DNA of 32,000 nt from Candidatus Saccharimonadota bacterium. Lineage in GTDB: Bacteria > Patescibacteriota > Saccharimonadia > Saccharimonadales > UBA4665. The notes under the pieces are model-generated. The model did not search any database and was not told where the DNA came from. It saw nothing but the letters and a program-made list of their open reading frames with translations. The DNA lies in assembly GCA_016699935.1 (NCBI GenBank), contig CP064992.1, forward strand, positions 1,020,001-1,052,000, written 5' to 3'. A program made the translations under genes and the position numbers. This document shows, in pieces, positions 3,342 to 29,155 of the stretch. Each line of letters begins with the position of its first letter. Position 1 is the stretch's first letter.

Positions 3342-3489
3342 ACTTATTTCTTTCTATTTCCTTTTTTCACCTCTAACTCAACACGGTTTCATTATACCTT
3401 ACCTTAACCGTAGCACACCACCTCTTGCAAGTCAAAGCAATATATTCAGTGTTTTCGGGGACTGTGGATAAGTTTGGCGAGCAAGGAAC

Positions 3490-3595
3490 GGTGAATGGTG
3501 AATGGAGAATGGAGAACGAAGAAAGCGGAATGGGGTGTGAAGAATGAAGAAAATCTATTAATCTGAATATACTCCTTCCACGTTCCTCTTTCCAT
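3490..3595. repeat. Heptamer-array hairpin element (copy E1)
   Basis: Nine consecutive 7-mers at 3490-3552: GGTGAAT GGTGAAT GGAGAAT GGAGAAC GAAGAAA GCGGAAT GGGGTGT GAAGAAT GAAGAAA. They face a pyrimidine arm at 3571-3595 (ACTCCTT CCACGTT CCTCTTT CCATG). Shares AATGGAGAATG with the copies at 7685-7695 (reverse complement) and 11183-11193. Confidence 0.7.
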
Positions 3596-3643: not shown

Positions 3644-4024
3644 TTAGACTAGTTCGACAGTAGCGCCAGCCTCTTCGAGGGCTTTTTTGGCAGCTTCAGC
3701 GTCTTCTTTTTTGGCTTTTTCAAGCACAACTTTTGGTGCGCCGTCGACGATTGCTTTGGCTTCACCAAGACCGAGACCGGTTAGCTCTTTGACTGCTTTG
3801 ATGACAGCAACCTTCTGGGCGCCAGCATCTTTGAGCATGACATCGTATTCAGCTTTTTCATCGGCAGCGGCAGCGCCAGCGTCGGCAGCTGGACCGGCAG
3901 CAACAGCTACAGCGGCAGCTGCTGGCTCAATGCCGTATTCGTCTTTAAGAAAGTTTTTGAGTTCGTTGACTTCTAGAACGGTAAGCTTGGTAAGCTCTTC
4001 TGCTAGTTTCTTTATATCTGACAT
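3644..4024 (-). CDS. rplL: 50S ribosomal protein L7/L12
   Basis: 126-aa ORF with the typical L7/L12 layout: N-terminal dimerisation helix, Ala-rich hinge, and a C-terminal domain ([20 protein letters not shown]). Confidence 0.95.
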
Positions 4025-4039
4025 GGGAATTTCTCCTTT

Positions 4040-4186
4040 ATAGAAATTAATTTTCAGGTAGCAATATTCATTTTACAGATAATTTTCAGATGTCGTTTTT
4101 CAAAGAGCACAGGATTGTAACTGTTTGCAATTTGAAGGTTTGATACTTTTCTGAAAATTGTGAATTGAGAATTGCGAATTTGAAGT
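4040..4186. repeat. Heptamer-array hairpin element, ORF-less copy (E2), filling the rplJ-rplL spacer
   Basis: Right arm GAAAATT GTGAATT GAGAATT GCGAATT at 4153-4180. A 10-bp stem pairs AATTTTCAGA (4081-4090) with TCTGAAAATT (4150-4159). The 24-mer at 4150-4173 is identical to the reverse complement of 23053-23076. Confidence 0.75.
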
Positions 4187-4711
4187 TTAGGCAACAGCCT
4201 TAGCTTCAACGCCATCGAGCAAGGCATGTAGGTTGCCAGAAAGCGCATTGGTGACATCGTTGACCGGTGAAAGCAGTGTGGCCACCACTTGTGCGATGAG
4301 GTCGTTTTTGCCCGGCAGTGTTGCCAGCGCTTTGACGTCCTCTGCTCCCATGAATGTGCCTGTGCTATCAAAGGCACCGACAAACTCTATTGTGGGATTT
4401 GCTTTGGCAAAGGCGTGCAGTGCTTGGGCTGGTGCAACTTCGTCGTCAGCGTTGAAAGCATACAAAAGCATGCCCTCTAAGCTGCTGGTGTCTGCGCTTT
4501 TCATAGCATCGCTTTGCTGCAATGCCTTTATGACGAGACGGTTTTTGACCACCTTTACTCTGGTGCCATTGTTACGAGCGTCGCGGCGCAGTTGCTGCAA
4601 AGCTTTAACAGTAGTGCCTTGGTACTTAGCAACAACTGTCATCTTGGCAGATGTAAGTAGCTCAGCAACTTCTGCGACAACTTCGTCTTTTTGACTTTTA
4701 TTTAGTGCCAT
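4187..4711 (-). CDS. rplJ: 50S ribosomal protein L10
   Basis: 174-aa ORF with the L10 N-terminal domain pattern, located immediately upstream of rplL. Confidence 0.9.
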   Translation of the reverse strand: MALNKSQKDEVVAEVAELLTSAKMTVVAKYQGTTVKALQQLRRDARNNGTRVKVVKNRLVIKALQQSDAMKSADTSSLEGMLLYAFNADDEVAPAQALHAFAKANPTIEFVGAFDSTGTFMGAEDVKALATLPGKNDLIAQVVATLLSPVNDVTNALSGNLHALLDGVEAKAVA

Positions 4712-4862
4712 TCATACTCCTTTGGGGTAATGAGACAAACCTCACGGTTTTTCTCATCGCACCGGCAAAATGAAATACATTTTGTCGGGCTGCTCTTTTC
4801 CCTAACCCCAGGATGAGCATTAATTATTTTAAAGACCTATCGACCATAAGATCTTTTGTTAC
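4712..4862 (-). promoter_or_regulatory. Structured 5' leader of rplJ (possible L10 autoregulatory leader)
   Basis: The minus-strand RNA has nested hairpins: CGACAAAAUG/CAUUUUGCCG with one mismatch, and AUGAGA..AAACC-GUGA-GGUUU..UCUCAU. AAGGAG lies 7 nt before the ATG. The family assignment rests on position only. Confidence 0.35.
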
Positions 4863-4864
4863 AT

Positions 4865-4897
4865 AAGAAAAGCGCTTTCAGTACTACCAAAAGCGCT
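4865..4897 (-). terminator. Intrinsic terminator after the 202-aa gene
   Basis: 8-bp stem AGCGCUUU/AAAGCGCU (4871-4878 with 4890-4897), followed on the minus strand by UUUCUUAU. Confidence 0.6.
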
Positions 4898-4990
4898 ATG
4901 CAAAACGAAATAAATCAATTTCGTCGCCTCGGTGACAAATTAAGGATTTTATCCAGTCACTGTCTTTGGTAACTTACCAAGTGTAACAGA

Positions 4991-5645: not shown

Positions 5646-6252
5646 TTACGCAAGTTTCATGTATAAGCGGGTGTCCGGGGTTGTGTCGCCAGTTGTGGTT
5701 GGGCGTTGGCCGGGTTCGGTTTTGATTATCTGGAAACCGAGTTTTTGGTAGATGTGGATTGCGCCGGCATTGCTTTGCCAGCTTTCAAACCAGAGTAAGT
5801 CTGACGAATATTCATGCCTAGTGTATTCGAGAACCACGGTTAAAAACGGTGTCGCCAGGCCCAGCCCCTGAAAGTGTTCGCTCAGTCGGACTCCTCCCGT
5901 AAGCTTCCCTCCAGGGATGTGCGGCGATGTGCCTGGGCCTGTCCAAGCTATTCCGGCTAGCTCGCCAGTAGCTGATTCTTTGAGCAGGAAGGTTAGCCGT
6001 TCTTTTTAGCATCCATCGGCGTATGGTCGGTTCGTCTTTGAAGCGTTCGGTGCAGTCTTTTGGGCAATATTTCAGGATTGATGTCTGGATGGAAAGCGCT
6101 TGGAGCGCAGGTATGTCAGTCTCTGTGATGCCGATTTGTACGGCAAACCCTTTCTCGGCCATGCTTTGCAGGGCGGCGCTGCTTGCTTCGTCGACGTTAC
6201 CTGGCGAAAGAAGCTGTACGGAAGTAGCTAGTGATGTCGGGAATTGTTTCAT
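5646..6252 (-). pseudogene. GNAT-family N-acetyltransferase, frame broken at a T5 run (6003-6007)
   Basis: Two ORFs (5818-6252 and 5646-5837) join into one GNAT once the frame is changed at the homopolymer. The joined sequence contains RLSEHFQGLGLATPFL and YQKLGF motifs. Confidence 0.75.
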
Positions 6253-7568
6253 GTTACGAGCTCCTCTATGTGGTTGGCGATTTCGGTTGCAAGGGTTTCG
6301 GCGTCTGGGGCTTCGACCATGACGCGGGCTAGTGGCTCGGTACCGCTGGGACGTACGAGGATACGGCCGGCGCTGCCGAGTTCGGCGGTTTTCACCTGGA
6401 CATACTCTGTGACCTCTGGAGAGTTTAACTTGGTTTTGTCTGCAATGCGGAAATTTACGAGGGCTTGTGGTAATAGGCTAACTTCGTTGCGCCAATCAGC
6501 AAGTGATTTGCCGGATTGTGATAGCACGCTCAGTATTTGTACTGCCGCTAGTAGCCCATCGCCAGTTGTAGCGAGACTAGGCAAAATGATATGACCCGAT
6601 TGCTCACCACCGATCTGATAACCCGTTTCGATAAGTTTTTCTAGGACATAGCGGTCACCGACTGCTGTACGAAGTAGTGATATGCCTTTACTGGCGAGGG
6701 CCTGCTCAAAACCTAAGTTACTCATAACTGTAGCGACAACTGTTTTATGACCCTGGCCAACTGCCAAAAGGTAAAGCAAATGATCACCAGTACATTCCCG
6801 GCCAAGTTTATCGATCATCATCAATCGGTCAGCGTCGCCGTCGACAGCAACGCCAAGATCACAATTTTCTCGCAAACCAGTTCGGATAATGCTTCGGTAT
6901 GGGTTGCACCGCAAGCTACATTAATATTTTGACCATCTGGGTTATTCCCAAGGCATAAAACTTGAGCGCCTAACCGCTCAAACACTCTAGCTCAATTTCG
7001 CTGGCGGCACCATGGGCTGTATCGATAGCCAGTTTCAGCCCATCTAGCCTAAGTTTACCGGCCGATGCTACCAAATAATCCTCATACTCTTGCACAAGAG
7101 AGCGATCGGTGTGCAACTGAGATTCTGGACTAGCTTGAAAATCATCAGTCGAACGATTTGGCACACCATTTTCAATATCGTAGTTTAGCTTTGCTTCTGC
7201 CTCATCTGGTAGTTTACTGCCTTGGGCTGAAAAGACTTTGACGCCATTAAACTCATAGGTGTTGTGGCTGGCAGTGATCATGACTCCAGCGACGAATTCA
7301 TCATGTGTGGCTGTCAAATAAGCCAAGCCAGGTGTCGGGATAACTCCTACAAAAGTGACTTTTACACCAACTCCCACCAACCCTTTGCTGACAATTTCAA
7401 CAATCTGCTGTGACGAACTACGGGTGTCACAGGCGATGACAATTTGTTGACCTTGCTCAGCAAACTGTGTACCCACAGCTCGGCCAATTGCTTCGCAGCC
7501 GGCGTCGTCTAGTGGATATTCTCCTGCTATGCCTCTTACACCATCGGTGCCGAAAGTTCTCTACTCAT
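6249..7568 (-). pseudogene. glmM: Phosphoglucosamine mutase with three single-base frame changes (about 7554, 6985, 6875)
   Basis: ATG at 7568 with AGGAG upstream. The pieces read FGTDGVRG, MITASHNTYEFNG (phosphoserine loop), VAVDGDADR (metal loop) and GGEQSGH. Each shift is resolved by adding one base to a short run. Confidence 0.85.
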
Positions 7569-7593
7569 TTTTGCTCCTTTCAGTCGCAGAAAT

Positions 7594-7701
7594 AAGAACG
7601 GAGAACGAGGAACGCGGAATGAAGGAGTCACGTTTCCCGAATCCTGTGACGTTGTTTTGCCCAATTTTATCATGCTTCATTCCTCATTCTCCATTCTTTC
7701 A
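7594..7701. repeat. Heptamer-array hairpin element (copy E3), the same element as E1 in opposite orientation
   Basis: Left arm AAGAACG GAGAACG AGGAACG CGGAATG AAGGAGT. Right arm CTTCATT CCTCATT CTCCATT CTTTCAC. A perfect 9-bp stem pairs 7616-7624 with 7675-7683, and pairing extends imperfectly to about 25 bp. Fills the acsA-glmM spacer. Confidence 0.7.
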
Positions 7702-9917: not shown

Positions 9918-11093
9918 CTAGTTTTTCCCTGAAACCTTGGCAAACTTTTCGACTATGGTTGTGATGTCTTCAGGCGTATGGGCAGCCGAAATCTGGACAC
10001 GAATGCGTGCTTTGCCCTTAGGCACAACCGGAAAAGAAAAGCCGACCACGTATATTCCTTCGTCAAACAAGGCTTTGGCTGTCTCGACAGCTTGTTTTTC
10101 TTCAGCAAACATGACTGGGGTGATTGGGTGTTCGCCGCCGGCGACGTTAAACCCGGCCTCAGTCATGAGCGTCCGGAAGAGCGTGGTGTTATCTTTCAGT
10201 TTTTTAACGAGCTCTGGGTGTTTCTGGATGTAGTCGATAGTGTACAGCGAGGCGCCGCAAGTGCCGACTTCCATTGCATTGCTAAAGAGGTAAGTGCGGG
10301 AGCGTTGTCGCAAATAGTCGACAACTTCTTGGTGACTGACGATAAACGCGCCGCCAGCACCGCCGAGTGCCTTGCCGTACGTACCGGTTAGAAAATCTAT
10401 GCGACCTTCGGTGCCGGTAAACTCAGGTGTGCCACGGCCAGTGGCGCCTAAAACGCCGGTGGCGTGTGCATCGTCGACCATGACGAGTGCACCGTACTTG
10501 TCGGCCAGGTCGCAGATTTCCTTGAGTGGTGCTATGTGGCCATCCATACTGAAAACGCCGTCGGTGGCAATAACTTTGAGGCGTTTATCTTTGACGCTCT
10601 TTAACTTTGCTTCGAGATCGGCCATGTCCATGTGGGTATAAATGAGCCGTTCGGATTTGGTCAGGCGAACGGCGTCGATGATACTTGCGTGGTTGAGCTC
10701 GTCGCTGATGATGGCATCGTCTGGGCCGAAGAACGTCTGGAAAAGCCCCACGTTGGCCATAAAACACGATGAGTAGAGAATGGCATCATCCATGCCAAGA
10801 AACTTTGCGGTAGCGGCTTCGAGCTCTTTGTGGATGCCTTGTGTACCGCAAATGAAGCGCACGCTGGCCTGGCCAAAACCCCATTTTGCCAGGGCAGCAT
10901 CGGAAGCTTCACGGACGCCGTCGGTGCCGGAGAATCCAAGGTAGTTATTGGCGCAGAAGTTTAGAAGTTTTTTGCCGTCTACCGTGATTTCACGGCCTTG
11001 GGGCGACATGATGACCCGTTCTTCCTTCCATAGTGACTGGTCTTTTATTCCTTGTAATTCAGTGTCGAGAATTGGTTTGAGAGCGGTGTACAT
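9918..11093 (-). CDS. kbl: Glycine C-acetyltransferase (2-amino-3-ketobutyrate CoA ligase)
   Basis: 391-aa alpha-oxoamine synthase family protein (DDAHATG, a Lys-containing TYGKALGG motif), adjacent to tdh. Confidence 0.9.
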   Translation of the reverse strand: MYTALKPILDTELQGIKDQSLWKEERVIMSPQGREITVDGKKLLNFCANNYLGFSGTDGVREASDAALAKWGFGQASVRFICGTQGIHKELEAATAKFLGMDDAILYSSCFMANVGLFQTFFGPDDAIISDELNHASIIDAVRLTKSERLIYTHMDMADLEAKLKSVKDKRLKVIATDGVFSMDGHIAPLKEICDLADKYGALVMVDDAHATGVLGATGRGTPEFTGTEGRIDFLTGTYGKALGGAGGAFIVSHQEVVDYLRQRSRTYLFSNAMEVGTCGASLYTIDYIQKHPELVKKLKDNTTLFRTLMTEAGFNVAGGEHPITPVMFAEEKQAVETAKALFDEGIYVVGFSFPVVPKGKARIRVQISAAHTPEDITTIVEKFAKVSGKN

Positions 11094-11113
11094 AGTATTC
11101 CTTTCTAGATTAG

Positions 11114-11230
11114 CCTGTTACCTGTGACGTGTCACTTAACATTATCCTGTATCCTGTCACCATTGATGCGGAATTCATGATCAATGGAGAATGGCCAATG
11201 ATTGGTCACAGGATAAAGGTGACATGACAA
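11114..11230. repeat. Heptamer-array hairpin element (copy E4) in the kbl-tdh spacer
   Basis: Left arm CCTGTTA CCTGTGA CGTGTCA CTTAACA .. CCTGTAT CCTGTCA. A perfect 8-bp stem pairs CCATTGAT (11160-11167) with ATCAATGG (11180-11187) around a 12-nt loop. The right arm contains GGTCACAGG and GGTGACA, plus AATGGAGAATG shared with E1 and E3. Confidence 0.7.
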
Positions 11231-11238
11231 TCTTCTCA

Positions 11239-12428
11239 TTACGCCTCCATGTTAAAGACGAGTTTGGGATGCTCGTTCATTTTTTGCTCAAAAACGGTGG
11301 GGTCGAATTCGCTGAGGTTCAGTACGGTATCTTGACCACCATTCAGAATGACATTCCAAACTTTGTCCTGTATGCCATTACTGGACTGCGCAAGGACGCG
11401 CTGGGAAAGTTGCCAGGTGTTGAAGATTTCTCGCCCGATAATACAGTGCAGTGTTAAGCCTGCGACAATAAGCCTCGGAAACTGTGGAATGACGAGGTCG
11501 CCATCTTTCACTCCGAACAAGACAACGTGGCCGCCGCGGCGAGTGCTATCGATGGCATTGTTGACGCTGCTCGCTGGCCCGGCCATTTCCATACTAACAT
11601 CCACACCCTTGCCGTACGTTATCTCATGGATACGTTCTATGACACCTGGGTCATGTTCCCACGGATTTGCTTTTTCGGTGTTTTCTATGAGGATGGTTTC
11701 GTCTGCGCCGCACTGCTTGGCGAGTTCGAGGTTCGCTGGGCTGACATCAACTGCAATGACCTTGGCCGCGCCAAACTTTTGGGCTATGAGGATACTAAAA
11801 AGCCCAATTGGTCCTGCGCCGAAAACTGCAATGCGTTGGCCACGCACATCTACTTTGGTGAGCGCGTGGATGGCGTTACCGAATGGGTCCATGATGGCAG
11901 CAACTTCCGGTCTAATGCGGTTTTTATCGATAGCCCAAAGGTTTTGGCGGGGAGTTTGACGTACTCGGCGAATATGCCGTCTATGGTGATCCCGAGGATG
12001 GCCTCGTTCATGCATACATTGGCCTGGCCTATTCGACACTGGTAGCATTTGCCACAAGTCACATGGCTGTCGCCCGAGACAAGGCTGCCAACTTCAATTT
12101 TGGCAATGTTTTTGGGGTCCGGATCCCAGTAAAGTGAGTTGACTTTGGAGCCGGCCTCCACGACCTCACCCACGAACTCATGGCCCACAACACGGCTTTT
12201 TTTTTGTGATCTCGCTCGAGCGCTTTCAAGAACTGGTCTTTGAAAGCATTGCGGTACCAGAGGCCTCGGTCGCTGCCGCACACCGGCGTACTTGATTCGT
12301 ACGATGACCGAGCTGGCATCGTCTGGCTCAACAGCTTCATTCAACGTTGGCCGCTCTAGTTCGGCTAGGCTAAACCCACGGGATTCACCCCATGGCTGTT
12401 CTGATGTATCTATAGTAAGTCCACGCAT
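11239..12428 (-). pseudogene. tdh: L-threonine 3-dehydrogenase (Zn-dependent MDR family) with three frame changes (about 12281, the T9 run at 12197-12205, the T4 run at 11942-11945)
   Basis: The pieces read AGV/CGSDRG, GHEFVGEVVEAG, GKCYQCRIG and VFGAGPIGL (Rossmann fold). Adjacency to kbl supports the tdh call. Confidence 0.8.
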
Positions 12429-14070: not shown

Positions 14071-14448
14071 TCATTTTTTGTACTCCCGAAGGAGCGCGAC
14101 AGCTTCTATCTCCACTACTAACGGGTGGTCGGCAACGCGCGGTAGCTCCGCGACCGCCACACAGGTACGAGCTGGTGCAGCACCTACTTTTTCAAACTCG
14201 GCCGCGTACACCTCATTCATAGCGCTGTAGTGCGCCATATTTGTCAGGAAGACGGTGGTTTTTACAACTTTGTCAAGCCCGCTACCAGCTTCTTCGAGTA
14301 CGCCGGCAAGGTTTTCGAGCGCTTGTTTCACCTGGGATTTCACATCTGGTTTAGCTACGCCCTTGACCGCCCCAATCTGCCCAGACGTATACACAAACCC
14401 ATCCGCCACATGAAACAAACTATACGGCCCATATGTTTTCGCAGTCAT
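14071..14448 (-). CDS. ridA: RidA family reactive-intermediate (enamine/imine) deaminase
   Basis: 125-aa YjgF/RidA pattern (GPYSLF.., RTCVAVAELP, IEAVA). Sits directly upstream of ilvA. Confidence 0.85.
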   Translation of the reverse strand: MTAKTYGPYSLFHVADGFVYTSGQIGAVKGVAKPDVKSQVKQALENLAGVLEEAGSGLDKVVKTTVFLTNMAHYSAMNEVYAAEFEKVGAAPARTCVAVAELPRVADHPLVVEIEAVALLREYKK

Positions 14449-14786: not shown

Positions 14787-16415
14787 TTACCGATAATGCT
14801 GCTCTGAGTCAAGCATTATCATTGCAGCACCAGAAAGAAGCGGATGTTTTTCAGCTAGTATTTCAGAAGTGCCGTACATTTGCGCACCGTGTTTAAATAC
14901 TTTGACAGTGTCTGGAGCCGAAAGCGTCATACTCCAGCGTTGTTTGTGGCCGAGGAGGGTGGCGTATTGGGATTCTGGCAGGAAGCCACGGGCTTGGAGG
15001 GTGCTTTGTAGTTGGAGGCTTTGGTCGAAGATGGCGTCGTAATCGTCGCTGAGGCCGGCTGCCTCTACTTCCGGGGGCATGTCGTAACCGTAGCGTGGTG
15101 TGAGCATCTGAAGTTTAACGCGGGTGTGCAGTTCATTTGGTAGGTCTTGCAGAAGTCCAAACTCTGCCAAAAAGTCCCATTCGTAAGTTGCACCGGCCAG
15201 TGCTTTTCCATGTGGATACCGGCGCACGTACTCTAGGAATAGTCGCGATTTCACCTCATATGGCCATTTCTCCACCGTGGCTTTCACTTCGTTCATGGGC
15301 AAGTCGAGCGATTCGTAGAGCATAGCGGGTAGCAAATTGAGCTCGTTACGTGGGGTGTAGCCGACTAACTGGACGCGCTCGGTGCTGCTAGCGAAGCCAT
15401 TTGGTATACGTTTTTGCATGCTTGAGTCGAATACTATAGGTTCGGTTGTAGTGAGTAGGTTGCGCAGTTCTTCTCGGGCGCATGCAATTGGCAGTAAAGG
15501 TCGTAGTAGCATGAGGGCGGACTTTTTAGCTAGAGTCTCATCGGTGAGGGTGGCATCCTCTGCCCGCAAGTGAGCCACTAACTTGGATACGAGCTTACGG
15601 CGGTCGCTGAGCAATCGTTCTATGTCATCACAGTAATCACATTGGATGTCATCGGGGAGGGTTTGCGGGACAAAGTATGTACTTTGCTCTGCATTGATTT
15701 TTGCGTTTTGCTGTAAAGAAAGCTCCTGCGCAGCTGAACTTTTAGCAAGTACGGCTGCCACCGATGTCGGTTCGGTAACTGCAGCACCTTCAAGCTCAAG
15801 GAGCACTGCCACATGCCGCCACACAGCTTCGAAGACCTCGTCTATACGGCCAGTCGCATACACTACAGGCATGTTACGCTGCTTTGCTTCCCACAGGTAC
15901 CCAGCCCGAATCCGTTCGAGTGTTTCTGCGGCCAAATTATCAAAGCGTTCGGTTTCGCCGCGCTGTCGTGCACGCTCATGCAACATCTGAACGGGAGCAT
16001 CGAGCACAATTGTCAAATCTGGCCACATATCGCCGACGGCGAAAGCAATGATCTCGTTCAGCCGCCGGTAATCTGCTATGTCGCCTCTACCGTAAAACTG
16101 GACGGCGAGAGTCGTAAGAAAACTTCGGTCAACTATGACGATATCACCGCCGTCACGGGCGGCACGAACTGCCTCGAGTGACTGACTACGCGCGGCATTG
16201 TATAGCAGCACCTCGGTGCGGGTGTTCATAGGGTATTTTGGGTCTTGGGTAAGGCGCCGAATTTCACTGGTGGTTGCATCTGCCTTGCCGTCTGGCTCGT
16301 GCATAAGGCGCGCCGAAAGACCAAGCTGCAGAAGCTCATGCACGAGCATGTCGGCAATAGTCGACTTCCCGACGCCTTGTGCGCCTTCCAAGACAATATA
16401 CTTGCCACGAATCAT
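14787..16415 (-). CDS. tmk: Thymidylate kinase fused to a C-terminal degenerate ThyX (Thy1)-like region
   Basis: The N-terminus MIRGKYIVLEGAQGVGKST plus DRSFLTT is a dTMP kinase. The C-terminal ~330 aa align by eye to ThyX (FLEYVRRYPHGKAL.., ..LHTRVKLQMLTPRYG.. in place of RHRxxSxxxxSxRY). The 87 codons upstream of 16415 in the tracked ORF translate REP-like repeats and are discounted. Confidence 0.75.
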   Translation of the reverse strand: MIRGKYIVLEGAQGVGKSTIADMLVHELLQLGLSARLMHEPDGKADATTSEIRRLTQDPKYPMNTRTEVLLYNAARSQSLEAVRAARDGGDIVIVDRSFLTTLAVQFYGRGDIADYRRLNEIIAFAVGDMWPDLTIVLDAPVQMLHERARQRGETERFDNLAAETLERIRAGYLWEAKQRNMPVVYATGRIDEVFEAVWRHVAVLLELEGAAVTEPTSVAAVLAKSSAAQELSLQQNAKINAEQSTYFVPQTLPDDIQCDYCDDIERLLSDRRKLVSKLVAHLRAEDATLTDETLAKKSALMLLRPLLPIACAREELRNLLTTTEPIVFDSSMQKRIPNGFASSTERVQLVGYTPRNELNLLPAMLYESLDLPMNEVKATVEKWPYEVKSRLFLEYVRRYPHGKALAGATYEWDFLAEFGLLQDLPNELHTRVKLQMLTPRYGYDMPPEVEAAGLSDDYDAIFDQSLQLQSTLQARGFLPESQYATLLGHKQRWSMTLSAPDTVKVFKHGAQMYGTSEILAEKHPLLSGAAMIMLDSEQHYR

Positions 16416-21190: not shown

Positions 21191-22145
21191 TTATTCGTTG
21201 GGGGTGACGGGGATGGAGGGGCCCATGGTGGTGGTGACGTGGATGGCTTTGATGTAATTGCCCTTGACGCTTTGTGGCTTAGCGCCTTTAATGCTGGCCA
21301 TGACAGCGGCTGCATTCTCAAGTAGTTTGGCTCCACCAAAGCTAACTTTACCGACGGCAAGATGGACTATGCCAGTGCTATCGACACGGTATTCAACGCG
21401 TCCAGCTTTGGCTTCGGCAACAGCTTTGTTGACGTCAGTCGTGACGGTGCCGCTTTTTGGGTTAGGCATGAGGCCGCGAGGACCAAGCAAGCGAGCGTAC
21501 TTGCCGAGCTTTGGCATGTTGGTGGGTGTTGCTATGAGAGTATCAAAACTAATCTCTCCCTTTTCGAGCTGCTTGGTGATTTCCTCTACACCCGAAATGT
21601 CTGCGCCGGTGACTGTATCGTCTGAAAACACTGCCACGCGAACAGTTTTACCGGTACCTTGCGGTAGAACCAGGTTGGCGCGGATGTTTTGGTCGGCCTG
21701 ACGGGGGTCAACACCTAGGTTGACATGTATTTCGACGCTGGCGTCAAACTTTACGCTACTCGTTTTGGTAGCGAGCTCTAGTGCTTCACCGAGCGGGTAG
21801 ACCTTGCCAGTTTCTATAAGTTCAGCGCTCTTGCGGTAACCTTTGCTACGGCGCTCTAGGCGGCTGCGAGTTGGTTTAACCAGGCGAGTAGGTTTGGCTT
21901 GGGCTTCAGCCTCTAGCTCGTCGCGGTGTTTCTGATGCTCAATCTTCTCGACTTTGGCTTCAGCTTCCTGAAGACCTTTGCGCTGCGCTTGCCTGCTTTG
22001 GCAAGTTTTACTTCATTTGCGGCTTCTTCCTCTGTAGTCTCAACTTCATTTACGTCTGCAGTGTCATCTACCGCTACCACCGCGGCGGCCTGCGCCTCAA
22101 GCTCTAGTGCGGCTGCTGCCGCGTCATCTACTTTTTCTTTGCCAT
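21191..22145 (-). pseudogene. rplA: 50S ribosomal protein L1 with a ~95-aa N-terminal extension. Two single-base frame changes (T5 run 22132-22136, T3 run 21977-21979)
   Basis: Canonical L1 starts around RSKGYRKSAELIETGKVYPL..VDPRQADQNIRANLVLPQGTGK. The upstream part is Ala/Glu-rich. ATG 22145 has GGAG 8 nt upstream. Confidence 0.8.
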
Positions 22146-22437
22146 CTCTCATTCTCCTTTCGTGGTACAAACCCCTCCGAAGCTTTCAGCGAAGGAGGGT
22201 CCCACAATATTGTATTAATTATGCGGCTAATAATGCTTTTTAACCAGTTCTTTATTTGAGTTAACAAATTCACCGAGGATATCAGTTGCTCTACTGCGAA
22301 CAATATTTAATGCTACTTTTTGTTGTACCTTCTCTGAGGGTTTAGTACTCGAATCATGCTGACGGTCGGAAACCCTCAAAAGCAGCCAATGTTTGTATAA
22401 GTGCTATACGGGATAATGAAAATTTCCGTCAATACCG

Positions 22438-22939
22438 TCAGGAGTCATTACAAGACTGACCAATTCCGAATATGCGGTTTGTTCCCCGGGCGATATTTGT
22501 ACTTTTCAGGCAATTTATTTCTACTTCCACGCCCATGCTGCGGGCGGTGCCGGCGACCATTTTCATGACAGCATCGACATCATCAGTGTTCATATCCATA
22601 GCCTTTTCGGTGGCGATTTTGCGCAGGTCTGCTTGGCTGAGTTTCTTGGCGATTTTTCGCTATTTGGCCGGCCAGAACCCTTTTGGATGCCCAGCGCAGC
22701 GCGATGCGGTCGTCGGTTGGTTCTGCCACAACACGGAAAGCCATGGTGCGGTCTTCGTAAATGGTGATGTGGGCTGTGACCGTTTTGCCCTGCATGTCTT
22801 TCGTGGCGTCATTGAAGGGCTGTATAAAGTCCATCATGTTCACACCATACTGACCGAGGGTAGAACCCACGGGTGGCGCAGCAGAGGCCTGCCCGCCTTT
22901 AATTTTCATTTTTAGATTGGCCTTTACGACTTTGGCCAT
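22438..22939 (-). pseudogene. rplK: 50S ribosomal protein L11 with two single-base frame changes (about 22695 and the T5 run at 22653-22657). The 3' end is uncertain
   Basis: MAKVVKANLKMKIKGGQASAAPPVGSTLGQYGVNMMDF.., then [14 protein letters not shown], then [28 protein letters not shown], each in a successive frame. The apparent 24-aa C-terminal tail may be another indel artefact. Confidence 0.85.
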
Positions 22940-23023
22940 AGTTATTCTCCTTTCGAACGCTTATTTTGCGGCTTTTGAAGCTATCCGCGACGTTCTCCTA
23001 CCTTTGAGTAGTGCGTAACAAGA

Positions 23024-23045
23024 ACATCTTAACAGATTAAGATGT
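23024..23045. other. Perfect 9-bp hairpin with a tetraloop (ACATCTTAA-caga-TTAAGATGT)
   Basis: Read directly. Lies between the four-helix-bundle cassette and the rplK start, followed by ATTTTT on the plus strand. Confidence 0.5.
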
Positions 23046-23046
23046 A

Positions 23047-23520
23047 TTTTTCAATTCTCAATTCACAATTTTCAGAAAATTTTCAATTTTTCAAGGCTTA
23101 GAGCCCATTCTCGGAACTGTTTTTAAGAGTGTTTATAATTTTTTGGAGAATCATGATGATTTGCTGTATTTCATCTTGCAACTCAACGAGTATTTGACTT
23201 TTATCACCGGAACGCTGAAAGAAGTTGAACCAGTAGCGAGTTTCTGATGCTTCTTTAGCTATAAAGACTTTTATTGCGAAAGTCTGCCTTGGAAGAGGCG
23301 TTGTTTGCCTCGACGTAGTTAGCTCTATAATGGTCGAAGACTTCACGACTTGTTCGATTGGCTTACTGAAGATAGGGTCTTTGTATGTCCGAAAATGAGC
23401 CAGAGTAGATACTCCAAACATAGTGAAGCGTTCCTCTAGATCGTAATAGCGTTGACCCATATATGAAACTTGTTATTTGTTAATTTTCTGAAAATTGAAA
23501 ATTGAAAAATGTGAATTAAA
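23047..23520 (-). mobile_element. Heptamer-array / inverted-repeat cassette carrying a four-helix-bundle ORF (copy E5)
   Basis: A 16-bp perfect inverted repeat (23066-23081 with 23482-23497) brackets the ORF. The flanks are arrays of GNGAATT-type heptamers. The left flank is identical over 24 nt to the ORF-less copy at 4150-4173. Mobility is inferred, not shown. Confidence 0.45.
23098..23460 (-). CDS. Four-helix-bundle protein (23S rRNA intervening-sequence protein / Avd-like family)
   Basis: 120 aa. QVVKSSTII...TFAIKVFIAKEASETRYWFNFF matches the family pattern QlirSatSI...dFihKl.ialKEa.Et.yWl.ll, as I recall it from memory. No SD upstream. Confidence 0.7.
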   Translation of the reverse strand: MGQRYYDLEERFTMFGVSTLAHFRTYKDPIFSKPIEQVVKSSTIIELTTSRQTTPLPRQTFAIKVFIAKEASETRYWFNFFQRSGDKSQILVELQDEIQQIIMILQKIINTLKNSSENGL

Positions 23521-23525
23521 AACTG

Positions 23526-24071
23526 CTATACTCTTTTGACTTGAAGAGAGTCGAGTTCTACTGGGGTTTCGCGGCCAAACATGTTAACGAGTACTTTGAG
23601 CTTGCCCTTTTGGGGGTCAAGTTCGGAGACTGAACCATCGAAACCCTTGAATGGGCCATCGATGATGTTTACAACCTCGCCAATAGCAAAATCTATCTTG
23701 TGTTTTGGCTGCTCAAGACCCATGCGCTTCTGTATCTTCTCGATCTCTTCTGGGTCGACTGGGGTAGGTTCGGTGCCGCTGCCCACAAAGCCGGTCACAG
23801 ACGGCGTGTTGCGCACAATATACCAGGCATCTTCGCTTAGCTTCATTTGCACGAGCACGTAGCCCTGGAATATGCGCTTTTCAACTATCTTGCGCTTACC
23901 GTTTTTGATTTCTATTTGCTTTTCCTTTGGCACGAGGGCTTGGAAAATCTTGTCTTTCATATCGAGGCTTTCGGCGCGCTGGCGAATGCTTTCTGCTACC
24001 TTTTCCTCGTAGCCACTATAGGTATGGATGGCGTACCATTGTTTGCTTGTGTCGTAGCGTTTCGTACTCAT
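23526..24071 (-). CDS. nusG: Transcription termination/antitermination factor NusG
   Basis: 181 aa. WYAIHTYSGYEEKV NGN domain and a C-terminal KOW domain (GEVVNIIDGPFKGFDGSV). Confidence 0.95.
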   Translation of the reverse strand: MSTKRYDTSKQWYAIHTYSGYEEKVAESIRQRAESLDMKDKIFQALVPKEKQIEIKNGKRKIVEKRIFQGYVLVQMKLSEDAWYIVRNTPSVTGFVGSGTEPTPVDPEEIEKIQKRMGLEQPKHKIDFAIGEVVNIIDGPFKGFDGSVSELDPQKGKLKVLVNMFGRETPVELDSLQVKRV

Positions 24072-24079
24072 ATAACTCC

Positions 24080-24463
24080 TTATTTCACAAATAGCTCTTT
24101 AAAGACTTTGTCTAGACCATAATCTACCACAGCGATAATGAGGCCAAACACTATCGAAAAAGGATTACCGCGGAATGTAAGCCGACGGCTATCTCGAAAC
24201 GTCGGCCACGTAACACCACGAAGCTCTTTCCAGCTTGCGCGTATATACGTGAGGCCAAGAACACGCCACAGCAGACGAAACGGTGGCAGCTGAGATATCC
24301 AACGCAGCAGATGCCCCACATGCTTTAGTGGGAATTGATGGCTTAACCAGGTTAAGGTGCGCCACAGTAGCTTTGCCGGTAGGAAAAAACCGCTCCAAAA
24401 TACTTGCCAGAGAGTCTGGTCGTCTACTTTATTTTGCTTCTTCTTTGCCACCTTCTTGCTCAC
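24080..24463 (-). CDS. secE: Preprotein translocase subunit SecE with an N-terminal extension
   Basis: The C-terminus ELRGVTWPT.. followed by a TM helix (FSIVFGLIIAVVDYGL) is the SecE signature. Position upstream of nusG fits. GTG start. Confidence 0.8.
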   Translation of the reverse strand: MSKKVAKKKQNKVDDQTLWQVFWSGFFLPAKLLWRTLTWLSHQFPLKHVGHLLRWISQLPPFRLLWRVLGLTYIRASWKELRGVTWPTFRDSRRLTFRGNPFSIVFGLIIAVVDYGLDKVFKELFVK

Positions 24464-26148: not shown

Positions 26149-26518
26149 TTAAGGAATAGTAGCTTTAACTCCTAGGTTTTTTATTGCCCAATACACCTTT
26201 TGTTATTTTGCGATGTTTTTATCTACAACCCATTCAATACACCTAATTATTTGTTAACAATAGCTATAGGCAAAACGTGGAGCTTTTGTCCTTCTGTCTG
26301 CGTGTAACAATACCATTTTACGAGCGCCCTTTGATGCTCGTTTGTCATTTCTCGATGCAGGCCTGGTGCGTAACTGACTATTACTGCCACCCTCAACGTG
26401 GTTGGCTGTTTGTCAGTAACTTGAACGGTGCGCAGTGCGCACCTGCTTAAATCCTGCTCCTTGAAAAATTTCCTGAAAGTTGTATGTTGAATATTGAACA
26501 GTTAATGCTACTCAAAGC

Positions 26519-29078: not shown

Positions 29079-29155
29079 TGGTGGGTGATGAGGGACTCGA
29101 ACCCCTGACCCTCTCGTGTAAACGAGATGCTCTAGCCAACTGGAGCTAATCACCC
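29079..29155 (-). tRNA. tRNA-Val (anticodon UAC) with encoded CCA. The anticodon loop is one nucleotide short as written
   Basis: Manual cloverleaf: acceptor GGGTGAT/ATCACCC, D arm GCTC/GAGC, anticodon stem TCTCG/CGAGA with the 6-nt loop TTTACA, T arm AGGGG-TTCGAGT-CCCTC, discriminator A, then CCA. Confidence 0.8.

Follow-up and report, generated by a model that had tools for sequence, protein, structure and literature searches.

Among described systems, the intervening sequences (IVSs) of bacterial 23S rRNA offer the closest comparison for the element reported here, a cassette lying between nusG and rplK in a 32,000-nucleotide stretch of the genome of a Candidatus Saccharimonadota bacterium (GenBank assembly GCA_016699935.1, contig CP064992.1, positions 1,020,001 to 1,052,000 of the forward strand; the whole stretch is called the window below, and positions are counted from its first base). 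The cassette is made of about five tandem heptamers, a four-helix-bundle (4HB) gene devoid of a Shine-Dalgarno sequence and about five heptamers complementary to the first ones, and this pattern is general. In Coxiella burnetii, the 23S IVS carries the gene of an S23p-family protein within a stem loop, with three tandem GACAGAT heptamers directly before the start codon; the number of heptamers differs from strain to strain, and RNase III cleaves at the first repeat (PMC4990558). Open reading frames (ORFs) of the 23S_rRNA_IVP type are also present in rRNA insertions of bacteria of the candidate phyla radiation (PMC11270868). The kinship with the rRNA IVS architecture, which the initial annotation of this DNA had pointed out, has become concrete, as the Coxiella IVS possesses the same protein family, tandem heptamers and an RNase III site. 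More generally, the 23S IVSs that encode S23p/PF05635 proteins (Coxiella burnetii, Leptospira, Brucella, Haemophilus; PMC4990558) share with our cassette the protein family itself, an ORF held in the loop of a long stem formed by terminal inverted repeats and oriented with the host transcript, a poor or absent Shine-Dalgarno sequence, heptamers that abut the start codon in a strain-variable number, and a sporadic distribution suggesting horizontal spread. They differ from it on three points: the window copy lies between protein-coding genes, with no rRNA in the window according to Rfam; it has arrays on both sides; and the RNase III cleavage demonstrated for Coxiella is assumed by analogy for the window cassette. 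We place the locus among the S23p-type IVS elements, as a member located outside rRNA. The interpretation given in the initial annotation holds for the most part, with reservations about operon status, the palindromic 16-mer and the putative RNase III processing.

Heptamer arrays have also been described elsewhere as repeats in their own right. In Geobacter metallireducens, the class 3 sites (MTYCTGA x5) form ORF-less pairs on opposite strands, of about five tandem heptamers and 80-110 bp apart, which lie between the operon genes proB-proA, moaA-mosC and cbiG-cobQ (PMC2700814). These pairs closely resemble a second, ORF-less element that we describe below in the rplJ-rplL spacer of the window, but the authors took them for IHF/HU sites and reported no link to a 4HB gene (PMC2700814). 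Miniature inverted-repeat transposable elements (MITEs) and repetitive extragenic palindromic (REP)-type elements are likewise short, intergenic, hairpin-forming and multi-copy, with ORF-less derivatives beside a longer form; in the window elements, however, neither a cognate transposase nor a target-site duplication was found, the arms are tandem 7-nt units rather than a unique terminal repeat, and a 120-aa helical bundle is all that the "autonomous" form encodes. Cyanobacterial short tandemly repeated repetitive (STRR) heptanucleotides, reportedly described by Mazel et al. in 1990, are said to be tandem heptamers of unexplained function in the intergenic regions of operons. STRRs were defined as repeats only, and we know of no association between them and a gene family; yet the 4HB genes of Nostoc, Dolichospermum, Planktothrix, Aulosira and Euhalothece are flanked by such arrays. 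In the searchable literature, whose coverage is incomplete, we came across no account of these cassettes in spacers of protein-coding genes, and, the Coxiella IVS apart, no paper that connects 4HB genes with heptamer arrays at their flanks; this absence is weak evidence. The cross-phylum package of gene and heptamer arrays has apparently not been described as a class.

On the minus strand of the window, secE (24080-24463) and nusG (23526-24071) are followed by an ORF of 120 codons (23098-23460) and by rplK, which starts at 22939. The gene and repeat coordinates first given for this region (ORF, nusG, rplK start and both sets of units) are all correct. The features are listed below; L and P numbers are our labels for loci and proteins.

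23526-24071, minus strand: nusG (PF02357 NusG, 1.6e-29), directly upstream of the cassette and on the same strand
23487-23525, minus strand: 5' arm of tandem degenerate heptamers (mRNA sense CAGTTTTTAATTCACATTTTTCAATTTTCAATTTTCAGA), a paired segment of the -34.1 kcal/mol duplex
23482-23497, no strand assigned: right copy of the perfect 16-bp inverted repeat (AATTTTCTGAAAATTG), a palindrome where the orientation of the units switches
23098-23460, minus strand: 4HB ORF, 120 aa, S23p/Avd fold (TIGR02436/PF05635)
23066-23081, no strand assigned: left copy of the perfect 16-bp inverted repeat (CAATTTTCAGAAAATT)
23051-23095, minus strand: 3' arm of tandem heptamers complementary to the 5' arm (mRNA sense CTTGAAAAATTGAAAATTTTCTGAAAATTGTGAATTGAGAATTGA)
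23026-23054, minus strand: promoter-like site for rplK, TTGAAA-17-TAAGAT with an extended TG
22940-23025, minus strand: conserved rplK leader (…GTTACGCACTACTCAAAGGTAGGAGAAC…GCGGATAGCTTCAAAAGCCGC…AAAGGAGA), alignable in L002, L005, L008, L012 and L083
22583-22939, minus strand: rplK, N-terminal domain (PF03946, 1.8e-22)
4025-4186, minus strand: ORF-less paired-array element in the rplJ-rplL spacer, with arms at ~4150-4184 and ~4053-4090

The two arms of the cassette are far more complementary than shuffled flanks. The left units AATTCTC AATTCAC AATTTTC (23053-23073), the right units AAAATTG AAAATTG AAAAATG TGAATTA (23491-23518) and the perfect 16-bp inverted repeat that brackets the ORF (23066-23081 against 23482-23497) all stand as initially read, and in 500 shuffles the longest perfect inverted repeat measured 7.3 nt on average and 14 nt at most, against the 16 nt observed. 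Starting from the 5' arm, whose first base immediately follows the nusG stop codon, the arms pair over ~37 bp (23525-23487 with 23095-23051) at -34.1 kcal/mol versus -10.6 +/- 3.0 for shuffled arms (z -7.7), and they extend to 42 nt at 79% complementarity. The proposed stem closing a loop of ~400 nt is recovered as a long-range stem in both the minimum free energy and the centroid folds of the 586-nt spacer RNA (z -3.3). The 16-mer is self-palindromic (AATTTTC-N-GAAAATT) and sits in each arm at the point where the units switch orientation, so that its two copies are equally a 14/15 direct repeat; the palindromic 15-mer occurs five times at no more than two mismatches, versus 0.12 expected. A simple classifier of arrays built on the AATTT core was dropped, since the AATT core is palindromic and orientations were confused.

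The same architecture surrounds most relatives of the ORF in many unrelated genomic contexts, which strongly reinforces the idea of a cassette. A protein search gave 849 relatives and a metagenome scan 80 loci; flank statistics were computed on 86 distinct 4HB genes with adequate flanks, using 90-nt flanks compared with shuffles. The inverted-repeat score of these flanks exceeds z 3 in 87% of the genes and z 5 in 74% (median 7.2), while self-identity at a lag of seven reaches 0.45-0.46 versus 0.32-0.33 at other lags. The common unit is AATTTNN upstream and NNAAATT downstream, NN being lineage-dependent, and an arm has a median of five units (modes 4-6). Unit usage matches between the arms of one locus at 0.70, compared with 0.32 +/- 0.04 when loci are permuted, and in 53 of 66 loci complementarity is higher in mirror order than with units permuted within the arms (p 3.6e-8). 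The arms, of ~46 nt, lie directly against the ORF, with median distances of 5 nt from the end of the 5' arm to the ATG and of 3 nt from the stop to the beginning of the 3' arm, so that the stop codon is often part of a unit. The cassettes lie co-oriented in short operon spacers, each with its own heptamer sequence (same-strand neighbours upstream in 69/73 and downstream in 62/71, with median gaps of 59 and 69 nt), and ORF-less derivatives exist. A widespread copy in Nomurabacteria reads ybaB-4HB-recR and has TTTACNN/NNGTAAA arms. Nucleotide identity of the ORFs amounts to 65-79% where the loci show no resemblance outside the arms, and universal rRNA motifs were absent from the vicinity of all ~100 related 4HB loci. 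Two paralogues on one contig carry different heptamers, and the arrays therefore belong to the cassette and not to the host genome.

The pattern extends well beyond the candidate phyla radiation. Among the matches of a tblastn search of plasmids were 4HB genes of Nostoc, Dolichospermum, Planktothrix, Aulosira, Euhalothece and Gloeocapsa, as well as of Treponema, Bernardetia, Chondrinema and Chlorohelix. At these plasmid loci, which come from five other phyla and include cyanobacterial, Bacteroidota, Chloroflexota and spirochaete copies, the flank inverted repeat exceeds z 6 in 11 of 12 cases, and tandem heptamers of lineage-specific sequence are found in all twelve, for instance:

upstream AATTCGT x4, downstream ACGAATT x4
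upstream CAATTCG x4, downstream GCGAATT x4
upstream AGTGATT x11, downstream AATCACT
upstream CAGTTAC, downstream GGTCACT x13
upstream AAATTCA, downstream TTTGAAT x5

The plasmid contexts are operon-internal as well: DrmD-4HB-PglX, helicase-4HB-methylase, DUF1156-4HB-Swt1/HEPN (twice) and RND adaptor-4HB-RND permease. Several of them are defence-type operons in which the cassette stands between subunits (L176, L174 and L182-L184, on Planktothrix, Dolichospermum, Gloeocapsa and Chlorohelix plasmids), the subunits being DISARM DrmD/BREX PglX, helicase/methylase and DUF1156/Swt1-HEPN; the DUF1156-4HB-HEPN arrangement is common to two distant phyla.

Heptamer arrays are otherwise rare. Even with a looser threshold, 1.32 Mb of Saccharibacteria loci contained ten arrays of period 7 and none of period 8-11. 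Five of the ten lie in the 32-kb window, namely those of the nusG-rplK and rplJ-rplL elements and three solo arrays, and the window genome is thus unusually rich in them. The solo arrays are all intergenic and have no inverted partner (33-67, CTCTTAN x5; 3478-3535, GGTGAAT GGTGAAT GGAGAAT GGAGAAC…; 7587-7622, GAGAACG-like units). Two relatives show solo arrays too, L018 with AACCTAN units (14405-14442) in an rplJ-rplL spacer enlarged to 80 nt, and L008 with GGTAGGG units (15117-15162) ~4.5 kb from its own 4HB cassette. One might argue that the locus is merely an ordinary small gene in an AT-rich, slippage-prone spacer and that its inverted repeat is a by-product of low complexity and chance. 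Indeed, AT-rich flanks made of similar units give some complementarity automatically, the 16-mer is palindromic, and permuting the units of the window arms does not lower their score. We nevertheless hold this explanation to be very improbable, given a complementarity far above that of shuffled flanks both in the window and in 87% of relatives, the scarcity of period-7 arrays in related genomes with periods 8-11 absent, and the recurrence of the pattern in other phyla with unrelated, GC-containing heptamers.

The assignment of the ORF to the four-helix-bundle, S23p/Avd fold is upheld by hidden Markov model (HMM), profile and fold matches, which agree. The HMM check that had been suggested gave, for the ORF as deposited, a TIGR02436 score of 24.8 bits (cut-off 24) over the C-terminal half only and no match in Pfam; this ORF is identical to P0006, which bears the NCBI name "four helix bundle protein". 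The weak score results from a pair of indels: in comparison with the L012 orthologue, the ORF lacks one nucleotide near 23327 and has an extra one near 23268, that is, a compensated double frameshift. Translated in the frame of L012, the ~20 codons enclosed by the two indels give the most conserved motif of the family (…ANYVEANNASSKADFRNK…), with differences that are mostly synonymous, and the repaired ORF reaches 53.2 bits with TIGR02436 and 32.3 bits with PF05635, against a gathering score of 33.8. With TIGR02436, the orthologue P0001 reaches 74.3 bits, and PF05635 is precomputed for all close relatives. Single-base indels relative to L012 orthologues also occur in rplK (~22703 and ~22653, 1-nt deletions that break its reading frame) and in rplA (21979), and phosphoglucomutase is split into two ORFs (6249-6914 and 6970-7476). 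As several conserved genes are affected, the simplest reading is that the double frameshift is probably an assembly error, recent decay being the alternative. The claim that the ORF lacks a Shine-Dalgarno sequence holds (AACAAGTTTCATAT-ATG), while rplK and rplL both carry AAAGGAGA. PADLOC gave no match for the ORF, and we rejected its identification as a known defence protein.

Structural comparisons lead to the same fold. A profile built from 60 relatives retrieved a single solved structure from the PDB, 2RLD (7e-23). The AlphaFold2 model of P0001 (pLDDT 91.5) has helices at residues 8-23, 29-53, 58-84 and 90-115, and Foldseek placed 2RLD first (E 2e-5, TM 0.75/0.85), then 2GSC, the Avd structure 4DWL and the 8UBx entries of ribonucleoproteins of diversity-generating retroelements (DGRs). 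The crystal structures 2RLD, 2GSC and 4DWL each contain five chains, and the Xanthomonas S23p homologue is a homopentameric toroid (PMC4990558); these structures and the literature suggest a homopentameric ring for the proteins of the family, which are basic (median pI 9.2). Avd, the accessory protein of DGRs (4DWL; 8UB7 and related), is itself a four-helix bundle that assembles as a basic pentamer and binds a defined, structured RNA element (bioRxiv 10.1101/2023.10.23.563531), and the question arises as to whether the ORF is the Avd of a decayed DGR. The fold does match (TM 0.64-0.70 query-normalised, 0.71-0.78 target-normalised), but identity to Avd is 13-14%, versus 32-34% to the non-DGR protein 2RLD, the genomic context differs, and the relatives of the ORF sit between housekeeping genes. 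As the initial annotation stated, the window holds no reverse transcriptase and no pair of template and variable repeats (TR/VR): a Pfam scan of 20 of its larger ORFs, including all those of at least 290 aa, returned housekeeping families or no match and no RVT domain, and the only direct repeat of at least 40 nt in the window is the heptamer arm. A DGR remnant, with neither hallmark among the scanned ORFs and repeats of the window, was rejected and has next to no probability in our eyes.

Comparison of nusG-rplK spacers between relatives, another of the checks proposed at the outset, indicates that the insertion is not fixed. The window NusG is 87-98% identical to that of 80 metagenome-assembled genomes of Saccharibacteria (TM7), and among relatives the spacer bears a 4HB gene with AATTTNN-type arms in L012, L081-84 and L094, a 4HB gene with CAACNNN-type heptamers, complementary between sides, in L008, L005 (decayed) and L095, and no 4HB gene in the majority of the others. 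Heptamer motif matches in L002 and L054 were set aside as chance matches. The L012 protein has 69.6% amino-acid identity to the window ORF and its arms use the same unit family, forming an inverted repeat of ~39 bp that is 38/39 complementary when read by hand (inverted-repeat score 72). Slippage changes the number of units even among near-identical strains: a single GTGAATT unit separates L094 from L081/L082, the ORFs being 99.2-99.5% identical at the nucleotide level, and the Coxiella IVS is reported to vary in the same manner (PMC4990558).

The ORF-less copy is real and occupies 4025-4186 in the rplJ-rplL spacer. In its 5' arm, 28/33 positions match the cassette (83% identity over 42 nt), and its predicted fold is a hairpin of -27 kcal/mol (z -3.4). 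Homology is claimed for the arm alone, as aligning the element globally with the whole cassette led to over-fitting; retention of the 3' end of the ORF is a weak hint only. The spacer measures 162 nt in the window versus 14-47 nt in most of 35 relatives, and the element is an insertion absent from all 35, in line with the suggestion that the cassette is mobile or deletion-prone. It lies downstream of the L10 leader and is a cleaner case of embedding in an mRNA than the nusG-rplK cassette. No target-site duplication is evident at the boundaries of either element. Copies of the arm in the 32-kb window amount to these two elements with related arms and one weak solo match (26461-26502, 64% identity, without an inverted partner) in the convergent spacer between a glycosyltransferase and a histidine kinase, which could be either the decayed remnant of a solo arm or fortuitous.

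Whether the cassette lies within a secE-nusG-rplK operon, as first stated, is answered only in part: it does stand between nusG and rplK on their strand, but rplK has a promoter-like site of its own. The -35 hexamer of this predicted promoter is built by the last heptamer unit, and an equivalent -35/-10 pair precedes GTTACGCAC ahead of rplK whether or not a relative carries an insert; where the spacer is shortest, the -35 shares bases with the nusG stop codon. Compared in 72 relatives, the nusG-rplK spacer varies in length between 52 and 1841 nt, and numerous unrelated small ORFs lie in it, without exception upstream of the promoter. It is a hypervariable insertion hot spot for small genes, which the cassette occupies at the 3' end of secE-nusG. 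The small ORFs of the spacer (L001-L080, ~10546-11500) are often predicted membrane or hypothetical proteins, and several of them terminate in …GQQG at the conserved GGACAACAG of the -35 region. A perfect 8-bp hairpin (CATCTTAA-CAGA-TTAAGATG, 23030-23049) occupies the spacer and -10 region of the predicted promoter and is kept in L012 with compensating changes (CATTCTAA…TTAGAATG). No terminator-like site was found on the minus strand from nusG to rplK, and without a terminator between nusG and the cassette, read-through from secE-nusG is plausible.

It seems reasonable to argue that the locus is one copy of a widespread, self-contained passenger cassette of the IVS type, whose arms pair on the RNA and are cut by RNase III; we consider this slightly more probable than the contrary and give it the most weight because the sole experimental precedent, the rRNA IVS, supports it. 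The cassette would have arrived in the nusG-rplK spacer as a unit, given how readily this spacer takes up small inserts in Saccharibacteria, and would be transcribed by read-through from secE-nusG. On the RNA, the arms would form an A/U-rich duplex of ~37 bp with its inner end at the start and stop codons, which RNase III may cut as it does in rRNA intervening sequences carrying the same protein family, freeing the cassette RNA from the host transcript. rplK would be served by its own promoter, with a -35 hexamer donated by the last heptamer, and the rplJ-rplL element would be an internally deleted derivative of which the hairpin alone is left.

Several observations weigh against such an RNA-processed passenger. 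The arms have no sense-strand excess of G:U (122 G:U-type versus 111 A:C-type mismatches), and the energy of the arm duplex is equal on both strands (sense -28.7, antisense -28.8 kcal/mol), so that selection at the RNA level is not demonstrated; symmetry at the DNA level explains the complementarity of the arms equally well. In the window, the mirror order of the units brings no gain over unit composition (40, versus 42.9 with units permuted). The predicted promoter of rplK makes processing unnecessary to explain why the insert is tolerated. Neither a target-site duplication nor a recombinase was identified for the cassette, and the Coxiella IVS protein is apparently not made (PMC4990558). Two plasmid loci depart from the scheme: Treponema L177 (~1060-1680) has arrays of the same orientation on both sides and an inverted array further upstream, and Chlorohelix L183 (~870-1500) has a direct repeat of ~100 bp on both sides of the ORF, itself with inverted arrays. 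These arrangements may be alternative pairings or recombination products. Finally, nothing in a simple stem demands tandem heptamers built on a conserved core, and this periodicity calls for a protein that reads the heptamers or for a mechanism that generates them.

It is therefore tempting to hypothesize that the arrays are the recognition sites of the encoded protein, a basic toroidal homopentamer that would engage one heptamer per subunit; we put this forward tentatively, as a possibility well short of even. The target might be RNA, single-stranded or double-stranded DNA, and the protein would control its own expression and that of nearby genes, or label the cassette ends for mobilisation. 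Pairing of the arms would in this case be of secondary importance, and processing by RNase III would be compatible with such binding. The median of five units per arm meets five chains in three crystal structures and the toroid described for Xanthomonas, the family proteins are basic, and the Avd pentamer binds its RNA element within the DGR ribonucleoprotein (8UBx entries). The heptamers are specific to each cassette and unlike between paralogues of one genome, as for cognate pairs of protein and site; a stem would manage without a conserved 5-nt core followed by two variable positions (AATTTNN); and the window genome is rich in arrays. Yet the binding data in this fold family are confined to DGR members, the arms are reverse-complementary so that a single-strand binder meets different sequences on one strand, and a ring of ~5 nm cannot be wrapped by 35 bp of duplex DNA. 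The spread of array lengths from three to 13 units, the seemingly untranslated Coxiella protein and the persistence of ORF-less copies with no protein in cis also speak against it.

The strand symmetry invites another explanation, in which the arms serve, at the DNA level, as the terminal inverted repeats of a small mobile element that has autonomous and MITE-like, ORF-less forms and is moved by some recombinase or by hairpin formation or template switching at replication, and pairing on the RNA is a by-product. We regard it as rather unlikely. Besides the symmetry of mismatch types and energies, the arms evolve in concert at each locus (as in L012), close relatives differ in whether they have the element, which occurs in many unrelated contexts, two related copies, one of them ORF-less, lie within 32 kb, and a transposon origin has long been suspected in the IVS literature (PMC4990558). 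On the other hand, no transposase or integrase was found among the scanned ORFs of the window or beside the cassette where gene tables were read, no target-site duplication was seen, and the co-orientation with neighbours and the exact abutment of the arms to start and stop codons point to expression-level constraints too. The IVS-type cassette, the protein-binding sites and the DNA repeats are not mutually exclusive.

Proteins of the PF05635/TIGR02436 type are numerous and, to our knowledge, have had no known function since rRNA IVSs were described around 1990; the tandem heptanucleotide repeats of cyanobacteria and other bacteria are, as far as we know, equally unexplained. Our observations bring the two together: gene and repeats form one package, found between operon genes as well as in rRNA, the repeats are cassette-specific, and the number of units is near the pentameric state of the protein. 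Both puzzles become testable through the binding of the pentamer to its own heptamers, the excision of the cassette from mRNAs by RNase III and the movement of the package. It is conceivable, though we lean against it, that pentamers of the S23p/Avd fold are sequence-specific readers of tandem heptamers, their five subunits corresponding to the roughly five units, and that gene and inverted arrays constitute a hitherto unrecognised cross-phylum class of self-contained mini-elements colonising operon spacers and rRNA helices. If true, this would provide one explanation for S23p-type IVSs, cyanobacterial STRRs and the ORF-less paired sites of Geobacter. For annotation, it is worth bearing in mind that the cassettes split operons, sit inside defence and efflux operons, and can donate a promoter or a Shine-Dalgarno-like sequence to the downstream gene.

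As regards the surroundings, rplJ-rplL (3644-4711, with the L10 leader at 4857-4987) lies ~16 kb from rplK-rplA (21191-22939), with metabolic genes between them. The Rfam scan of the window returned only this L10 leader and one tRNA, and nothing at the element. The tRNA (29079-29155, 42.7 bits) is called "tRNA-???" by ARAGORN, with a two-base anticodon, and may be indel-affected.

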